A stretch of 64,000 nucleotides of DNA from Escherichia coli (GTDB lineage: Bacteria > Pseudomonadota > Gammaproteobacteria > Enterobacterales > Enterobacteriaceae). Location: assembly GCF_003334815.1 (NCBI RefSeq), contig NZ_QOWO01000002.1; one strand, given 5' to 3'. How positions within the stretch are numbered: the first letter of the stretch is position 1; every line of letters begins with the position of its first letter. Under the pieces are notes generated by a model, which was not told the origin of the DNA, did not search any database, and saw only the letters and a list, made by a program, of their open reading frames with translations. The position numbers and the translations under genes were made by a program. Shown here piece by piece: positions 57,606 through 57,715 of the stretch.

Positions 57606-57613
57606 AACAGGTT

Positions 57614-57629
57614 CGGAAAACGTTTGCGT
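57614..57629. promoter_or_regulatory. PurR-box-like sequence upstream of pyrD
   Basis: CGGAAAACGTTTGCGT, 13/16 match to the PurR operator consensus ACGCAAACGTTTGCGT. Confidence 0.5.
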
Positions 57630-57682
57630 TTTTTTTGCCGCAGGTCAATTCCCTTTTGGTCCGAACTCGCACATAATACGCC

Positions 57683-57700
57683 CCCGGTTTGCACACCGGG
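57683..57700 (+). promoter_or_regulatory. pyrD leader hairpin (CCCGG-TTTGCACA-CCGGG) just upstream of the Shine-Dalgarno
   Basis: Perfect 5-bp GC stem ending 4 nt before the AGGAG SD; CATAAT -10-like hexamer 6 bp upstream (57672-57677). Confidence 0.55.
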
Positions 57701-57715
57701 AATCCAGGAGAGTTC

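Follow-up and report, generated by a model that had tools for sequence, protein, structure and literature searches.

The pyrD leader of Escherichia coli K-12: a PurR operator, alternative start sites and a conserved 5' hairpin in a 110-bp intergenic region

How pyrD is controlled, and how much of that control can be read from the DNA itself, is the question raised by a 110-bp gap in the window, which is the whole 64,000-nucleotide stretch of E. coli DNA analysed here. This gap lies between the stop codon of ycbF, a fimbrial chaperone gene, and the ATG of pyrD. An initial annotation had proposed that it holds a PurR-like operator, a -10-like hexamer and a GC hairpin next to the ribosome-binding site. 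The observation is real and its interpretation is supported, and the feature is confirmed as one already known and curated, with textbook regulation. With a probability of roughly 0.88, the locus is the already characterised E. coli pyrD promoter-leader, equipped with PurR control and a start-site switch. Taken singly, the elements are weak evidence; the case rests on the match to Rfam, on the PurR ChIP-chip motif and on the mapped 5' ends. The pyrD leader can be recognised as a textbook regulatory region from raw sequence, and the established picture is left unchanged. What keeps its interest is how translation is blocked by a hairpin separated from the Shine-Dalgarno (SD) sequence by 5 nt, together with the constraint found on an upstream block and on the first ten codons.

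The locus was placed by identity. Many complete E. coli genomes contain, at 100% identity, the 601-nt stretch around the pyrD leader, and over these 601 nt the window corresponds exactly to positions 1,004,400-1,005,000 of NC_000913.3 (MG1655), with an offset of 947,052; the window DNA is E. coli K-12 chromosome. The leader was found in all of 5426 complete E. coli genomes and its 74 nt are identical in 5377, while the one variant inspected differs only in the spacer between the -35 and -10 elements. The 601-nt query, which takes in the ycbF 3' end (the side of window 57400-57605) and pyrD, is covered to at least 80% in only 4067 of the 5426 genomes. Other E. coli strains and Escherichia relatives have different DNA upstream of the PurR operator (PUR box), and there the box reads AAGAAAACGTTTGCTA. 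The coordinates of the features are collected in Table 1.

Table 1. Features of the pyrD promoter-leader, in window coordinates
Feature	Position	Strand	Basis or remark
ycbF stop codon	57603-57605		Read from the sequence
PurR operator (PUR box) CGGAAAACGTTTGCGT	57614-57629		13/16 match to consensus; ChIP-chip motif
Upstream promoter block TTTTTTGCCGCAGGTCAATTCCCTTT	57630-57656	+	Column conservation in 81 sequences; role inferred
Rfam PyrD_leader (RF02373) match	57648-57721	+	97.9 bits (gathering score 47), E = 1.5e-15, model positions 1-74 of 74
-10 hexamer CATAAT	57672-57677	+	nATAAT in 81/81; mapped 5' ends 8-9 nt downstream
Alternative start region CCCGG	57683-57687	+	Positions +6 to +10 after the -10 (C6, C7, C8, G9, G10)
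5'-leader RNA hairpin	57683-57700	+	Arms CCCGGU 57683-57688 and ACCGGG 57695-57700; loop 6 nt
Shine-Dalgarno AGGAG	57706-57710	+	5 nt before ATG, 5 nt after hairpin; 81/81
pyrD ATG	57716-57718		Read from the sequence
pyrD CDS, quinone-dependent dihydroorotate dehydrogenase	57716-58726	+	RefSeq annotation of identical DNA; ORF

The CATAAT hexamer noted in the initial annotation is present, with nATAAT kept in every sequence compared, and transcription has been mapped to begin just downstream of it. The likely -35 element, TTCCCT at 57649-57654, is weak (3/6, with a spacer of 17 bp), and this weakness is the reason why a consensus promoter scan of 57400-57900 found no promoter; given the mapped starts, the empty scan is no argument against a pyrD promoter. 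In M9 glucose medium, the pyrD start was located at 1,003,961 with 421 reads (Kim, 2012), which corresponds to G57686, 9 nt after the -10. By using SMRT-Cappable-seq, the start was located at 1,004,737, which corresponds to C57685 (C8), in a data set that pooled M9 and rich medium and merged starts within 5 bp (Yan, 2018). Both E. coli sets give one representative 5' end each, not resolved by pyrimidine condition, and both ends lie within the 5' arm of the hairpin. These two ends, C8 and G9, belong to the short transcripts of the derepressed state, the ones to be expected when minimal medium receives no pyrimidines. In the Cappable-seq supplement of 2016 there is no entry at the pyrD start coordinates.

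A separate observation concerns the block TTTTTTGCCGCAGGTCAATTCCCTTT, whose 26 bp are almost invariant in the 81 Enterobacteriaceae, the next 9-10 nt toward the -10 varying freely. The block contains a T-tract and the likely -35, and it is more conserved than the weak TTCCCT would seem to need. From this pattern of conservation, it might be an UP-like T-tract with the -35, or else an unrecognised protein site.

The hairpin described in the initial annotation was borne out, as its arms CCCGG and CCGGG (the latter at 57696-57700) are fully complementary and the same hairpin is drawn in the structure of Rfam family RF02373. A sixth pair, U57688-A57695, is possible and leaves a loop of 6 nt. The distance to AGGAG, which had been given as 4 nt, is actually 5 nt (AATCC), a minor miscount. 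Perfect 5-bp hairpins made only of G-C pairs, with loops of 3-10 nt, occur 26 times in the window, equivalent to 0.045 per 110 bp; alone, the pyrD hairpin is only mildly unusual, and its reality rests on its conservation and on the Rfam match. The latter runs over the full length of the model and ends 3 nt past the pyrD ATG, and the RF02373 structure is the same 6-bp hairpin. Compared with this family, nothing detectable differs in the window element, and E. coli K-12 is set apart only by the upstream ycbF and by the flanks of the PUR box. The 5' arm is built from the C residues of the start region, and the stability of the hairpin thus depends on the start that is used: for the isolated hairpin, the calculated free energy was -9.2 kcal/mol with the 5' end at C6, -7.2 at C7, -3.9 at C8 and -1.9 at G9. 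The ensemble energy of the whole leader goes from -16.7 to -8.8 with the start site.

Reviews describe that, in both E. coli and Salmonella, pyrC and pyrD are subject to a CTP/GTP-sensitive choice between a C and a G start. When the CTP/GTP ratio is high, transcription starts at a C 6-7 nt after the Pribnow box, and the additional C residues let the 5' end fold into a stable hairpin, which keeps ribosomes from binding; when the ratio is low, a G start is used and the mRNA is translated. In the pyrD leader, the order CATAAT-ACGCC-CCCGG places C at positions 6-8 and G at positions 9-10 after the -10, which is the arrangement required for a start-site switch. The proposal that the layout is the one known for nucleotide-sensitive start-site switching at pyrC and pyrD is supported by the RF02373 match, the fixed C6-8/G9-10 order, the mapped ends and the reviews. 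The locus identity, the elements and their fixed geometry, their conservation, the energy step and the position of the 5' ends at 8-9 come from the present analysis; the literature supplies PurR occupancy, the switch between starts in response to nucleotides and the effect of that switch on translation.

On this model, the CTP/GTP ratio would decide which of several neighbouring start sites is used by RNA polymerase bound at CATAAT. Where CTP is abundant, initiation would occur at a C 6-7 nt after the -10 (57683-57684), so that the transcript includes the full CCCGG 5' arm; it would then fold into a 5'-terminal hairpin of -7 to -9 kcal/mol, ending at -16, and inhibit 30S binding. Where CTP is low or GTP is high, initiation would move to G9 (57686), the hairpin would be nearly abolished (-1.9 kcal/mol) and the mRNA would be translated. 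In addition, PurR with hypoxanthine or guanine would bind the PUR box upstream of the -35 and repress transcription modestly.

For the PurR site itself, agreement with the consensus ACGCAAACGTTTGCGT was found to be as the initial annotation had counted it, with the AAACGTTT core intact. It is the sole site with at most 3 mismatches to ACGCAAACGTTTGCGT in the 64-kb window. Shuffled sequence gives 0.62 such matches per 64 kb and about 0.001 are expected per 110-bp interval; window-wide, the match on its own is not significant. In a PurR ChIP-chip study of MG1655, the pyrD motif is the same 16-mer, CGGAAAACGTTTGCGT, at 1,003,889-1,003,904, and these coordinates map onto the PUR box of the window with identical sequence and position (Cho, 2011; PMC3159470, Table 1). 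In the same study, PurR was bound at pyrD when adenine was supplied. An excerpt from the literature that cites Wilson and Turnbough (1990) gives the repression of pyrC and pyrD by PurR as weak, about two-fold, and that of carAB P1 as similar. The box is upstream of the -35, with its centre about 62 bp upstream of the pyrD start region. Other operators of the PurR regulon (purF, purT, cvpA-purF and others) share with it the form of a 16-bp imperfect palindrome with a central AAACGTTT core, but the pyrD box lies upstream of its promoter without overlapping it and the repression reported there is weak. It is conceivable, though rather unlikely, that its effect is exerted through the block at 57630-57656, for example by interfering with the alpha-CTD.

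Conservation was assessed in 80 species representatives obtained from a genome scan, all of them Enterobacteriaceae with PyrD at least 91% identical, which gives 81 sequences with the window. All 81 have the order nATAAT-N5-CCCGG-loop (7-8 nt)-CCGGG-short spacer-AGGAG-N5-ATG, the short spacer being AATCC in 78 of them. The 5 nt between the -10 and CCCGG occur in 10 sequence variants without any change of length (81/81), and because of this constant spacing the stem opens with a C at position 6 after the -10, and its G residues fall at 9-10, in every sequence. The loop is found in 7 variants, length changes included, and the ten stem bases are unchanged throughout the 81 sequences. From -10 through ATG, Salmonella enterica arizonae is identical to E. 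coli, and for this reason the Salmonella pyrD experiments transfer to E. coli. The study by Sorensen from 1993, cited by reviews as the primary one on pyrD start sites, was reportedly done in Salmonella, going by its title. RF02373 represents the leader of pyrD in S. Typhimurium and E. coli, and the studies associated with it are those of Frick (1990) and Sorensen (1993).

A PUR-like box was found in 80/80 of the related Enterobacteriaceae species. As a side observation, the boxes, which lie some 50-75 nt upstream of each -10, take one of two registers. In 31 sequences (E. coli, Citrobacter, Salmonella) the distance from box centre to -10 is 48-50 bp, and in the other register, with 49 sequences (Enterobacter, Klebsiella, Kosakonia and others), it is 59-61 bp, a shift of roughly one helical turn.

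Beyond this group, the upstream regions of pyrD in Yersinia, Proteus and Aeromonas, which were drawn from chromosomes labelled as plasmids in PLSDB, showed neither the hairpin nor an Rfam match. Likewise, representatives with a PyrD about 55% identical (50% clustering level) gave no match to Rfam PyrD_leader; in these relatives the upstream context is another one: the preceding gene overlaps pyrD or ends 12 nt from it, or else the neighbour is divergent and of a different kind. The distribution among the sequences compared indicates that the pyrD leader element appears to be confined to the Enterobacteriaceae. A homologous-protein search returned only near-identical E. coli PyrD variants.

The initial annotation had also stated that the hairpin occludes the ribosome-binding site. 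The functional part of this statement agrees with the reviews, which report a block of ribosome binding, but in pyrD the hairpin and the SD do not pair: counted from the AUG, the last base of the 3' arm is at -16, and AGGAG (-10 to -6) stays outside the stem. As there is no such pairing, any occlusion would have to be steric. The 5'-terminal hairpin would leave only 5 single-stranded nt upstream of the SD, inside the region contacted by the 30S subunit, and we infer that inhibition at pyrD is probably steric, through a block of the standby or platform site that immediately precedes the SD. The predicted probability that the SD is unpaired was 0.21-0.28 for every start site, on a metric that is also weak for the validated pyrC leader, where it changed modestly, from 0.10-0.16 to 0.28-0.33; because of this weak response in a validated case, SD accessibility was rejected as a discriminating test.

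The E. coli pyrC leader (RF02372) is a close comparison, and the E. coli pyrC sequence matches Rfam PyrC_leader. Both leaders have CCGG at positions 7-10 after the -10, a PUR box upstream and a hairpin whose 3' arm ends 14-16 nt before the AUG, and on passing from the C7 to the G9 start the hairpin goes from -8.1 to -3.0 kcal/mol in pyrC and from -7.2 to -1.9 kcal/mol in pyrD. Sequence homology between the two is limited to CCGG. The pyrC hairpin has 5 bp (4 in the 50-nt Rfam consensus structure plus one) and a loop of 15 nt, against a loop of 6 nt in pyrD, and its 3' arm CCGG runs into GGAG and so overlaps the SD, whereas the pyrD hairpin stops 5 nt before AGGAG. The PUR boxes also differ in placement, that of pyrC abutting the -10 inside the core promoter and that of pyrD being centred about -62. 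It is conceivable, though rather unlikely in our judgement, that the pyrD hairpin works in a mode different from that of pyrC, namely by a block of the 30S standby or platform, maybe with participation of the first ~10 codons or of the block 57630-57656. On this view the block may bind some factor as yet unrecognised, which would make it more than a weak -35. A separate observation on the coding side is that in pyrD codons 1-10 (57716-57748) the synonymous third positions are nearly fixed in the 81 species, with a majority-base fraction of 0.96 in comparison with a gene mean of 0.68, which ranks this segment 5th of 326. Such fixation suggests that the start of the pyrD coding region is under constraint at the RNA level.

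The conservation of the stem admits another reading, in which CCCGG...CCGGG is kept by a constraint on the DNA and no RNA hairpin is involved; a GC-rich discriminator or initially transcribed sequence, acting on open-complex stability or on the response to ppGpp/DksA, could be the cause, as could a palindromic protein site. Covariation in the stem was not detected, and RNAalifold applied to the 81 sequences again gave this hairpin, with 6 pairs and not one compensatory change. Since all 5 G-C pairs are invariant, the comparative data cannot separate RNA structure from DNA-level constraint, and the hairpin structure is supported by the pattern of conservation and not by covariation. The arms are not uniquely conserved either, as the flanking non-stem AATCCAGGAGAGTTC is equally invariant, and the region from the -10 to the start is GC-rich in all variants, features that suit a constraint on the DNA. 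This reading is nevertheless improbable: the loop varies in sequence and in length while both arms stay fixed, as for a stem-loop, pyrC shares the geometry but neither the loop nor the flanks, the literature credits a hairpin in the transcript, and Rfam curates the element as an RNA leader.

Two further roles can be considered for the hairpin once it is accepted as RNA. It could mainly shield the mRNA from decay that depends on the 5' end and involves RppH and RNase E, so that the long transcripts would be more stable and more expressed. Such a role would fit a hairpin that makes no pairing with the SD, and a hairpin whose stem includes nucleotide 1 of the transcript, as with the C6 start, resembles known 5' stabilisers. 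It would, however, predict more pyrD expression at high CTP, the opposite of the pyrimidine repression and ribosome-binding block that have been reported, which makes it very improbable. A transcription terminator, serving the upstream ycbF fimbrial operon or a transcript of the minus strand, was rejected, and we give it practically no credence. A simple scanner does flag the hairpin as terminator-like on the minus strand, at 57702-57681, but the T-rich tail there is merely the complement of the -10 and no convergent minus-strand gene is present at the pyrD leader. The plus-strand sequence after the hairpin is AAUCCAGGAG, with no U-run, and the element is kept in species and in E. coli strains where the upstream gene is other than ycbF.

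The start-site switch may also be set beside pyrBI, codBA and upp, which are governed by UTP-sensitive reiterative transcription or start switching. In common with pyrD, the NTP pool is sensed there directly by RNA polymerase, at initiation and without a repressor protein. These systems make use of T-runs and slippage, in contrast to pyrD with its choice of C or G start and its mRNA hairpin. Slippage is not documented at pyrD, although its start region does contain 5 consecutive C residues.

Some minor observations were made along with the comparison. In Proteus mirabilis (L089), a different perfect 5-bp hairpin, CGACG-N7-CGTCG, lies ~55-75 nt upstream of the pyrD ATG; a -10-like hexamer, TATGAT, precedes it by 3 nt, the SD follows at a distance of about 40 nt, and further upstream there is a PUR-like AAACGTTT core. 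This hairpin may be a start-proximal analogue of the pyrD one, or else a product of chance. In contig JARCCX010021499.1 of GCA_029782595.1 (L087), positions 1201-2918 hold a truncated pyrD that continues in frame into another copy of the leader and a full pyrD; this Klebsiella-like sequence looks like an assembly chimera or contamination. P0137, which came up in the search for covariation, proved to be an assembly chimera with a Klebsiella-type leader. Several PLSDB "plasmids" of 3.6-5.4 Mb (entries H9, H14, H15, H19 and H22-H27) are whole chromosomes; these mislabelled records, from E. coli, Klebsiella, Proteus, Aeromonas and Acinetobacter, are a caveat for plasmid-based statistics. Elsewhere in the window, the ES036 (CssrF) sRNA family (Rfam RF02751) has a match at 37343-37385 on the plus strand, which scores 53 bits (gathering score 37.6).
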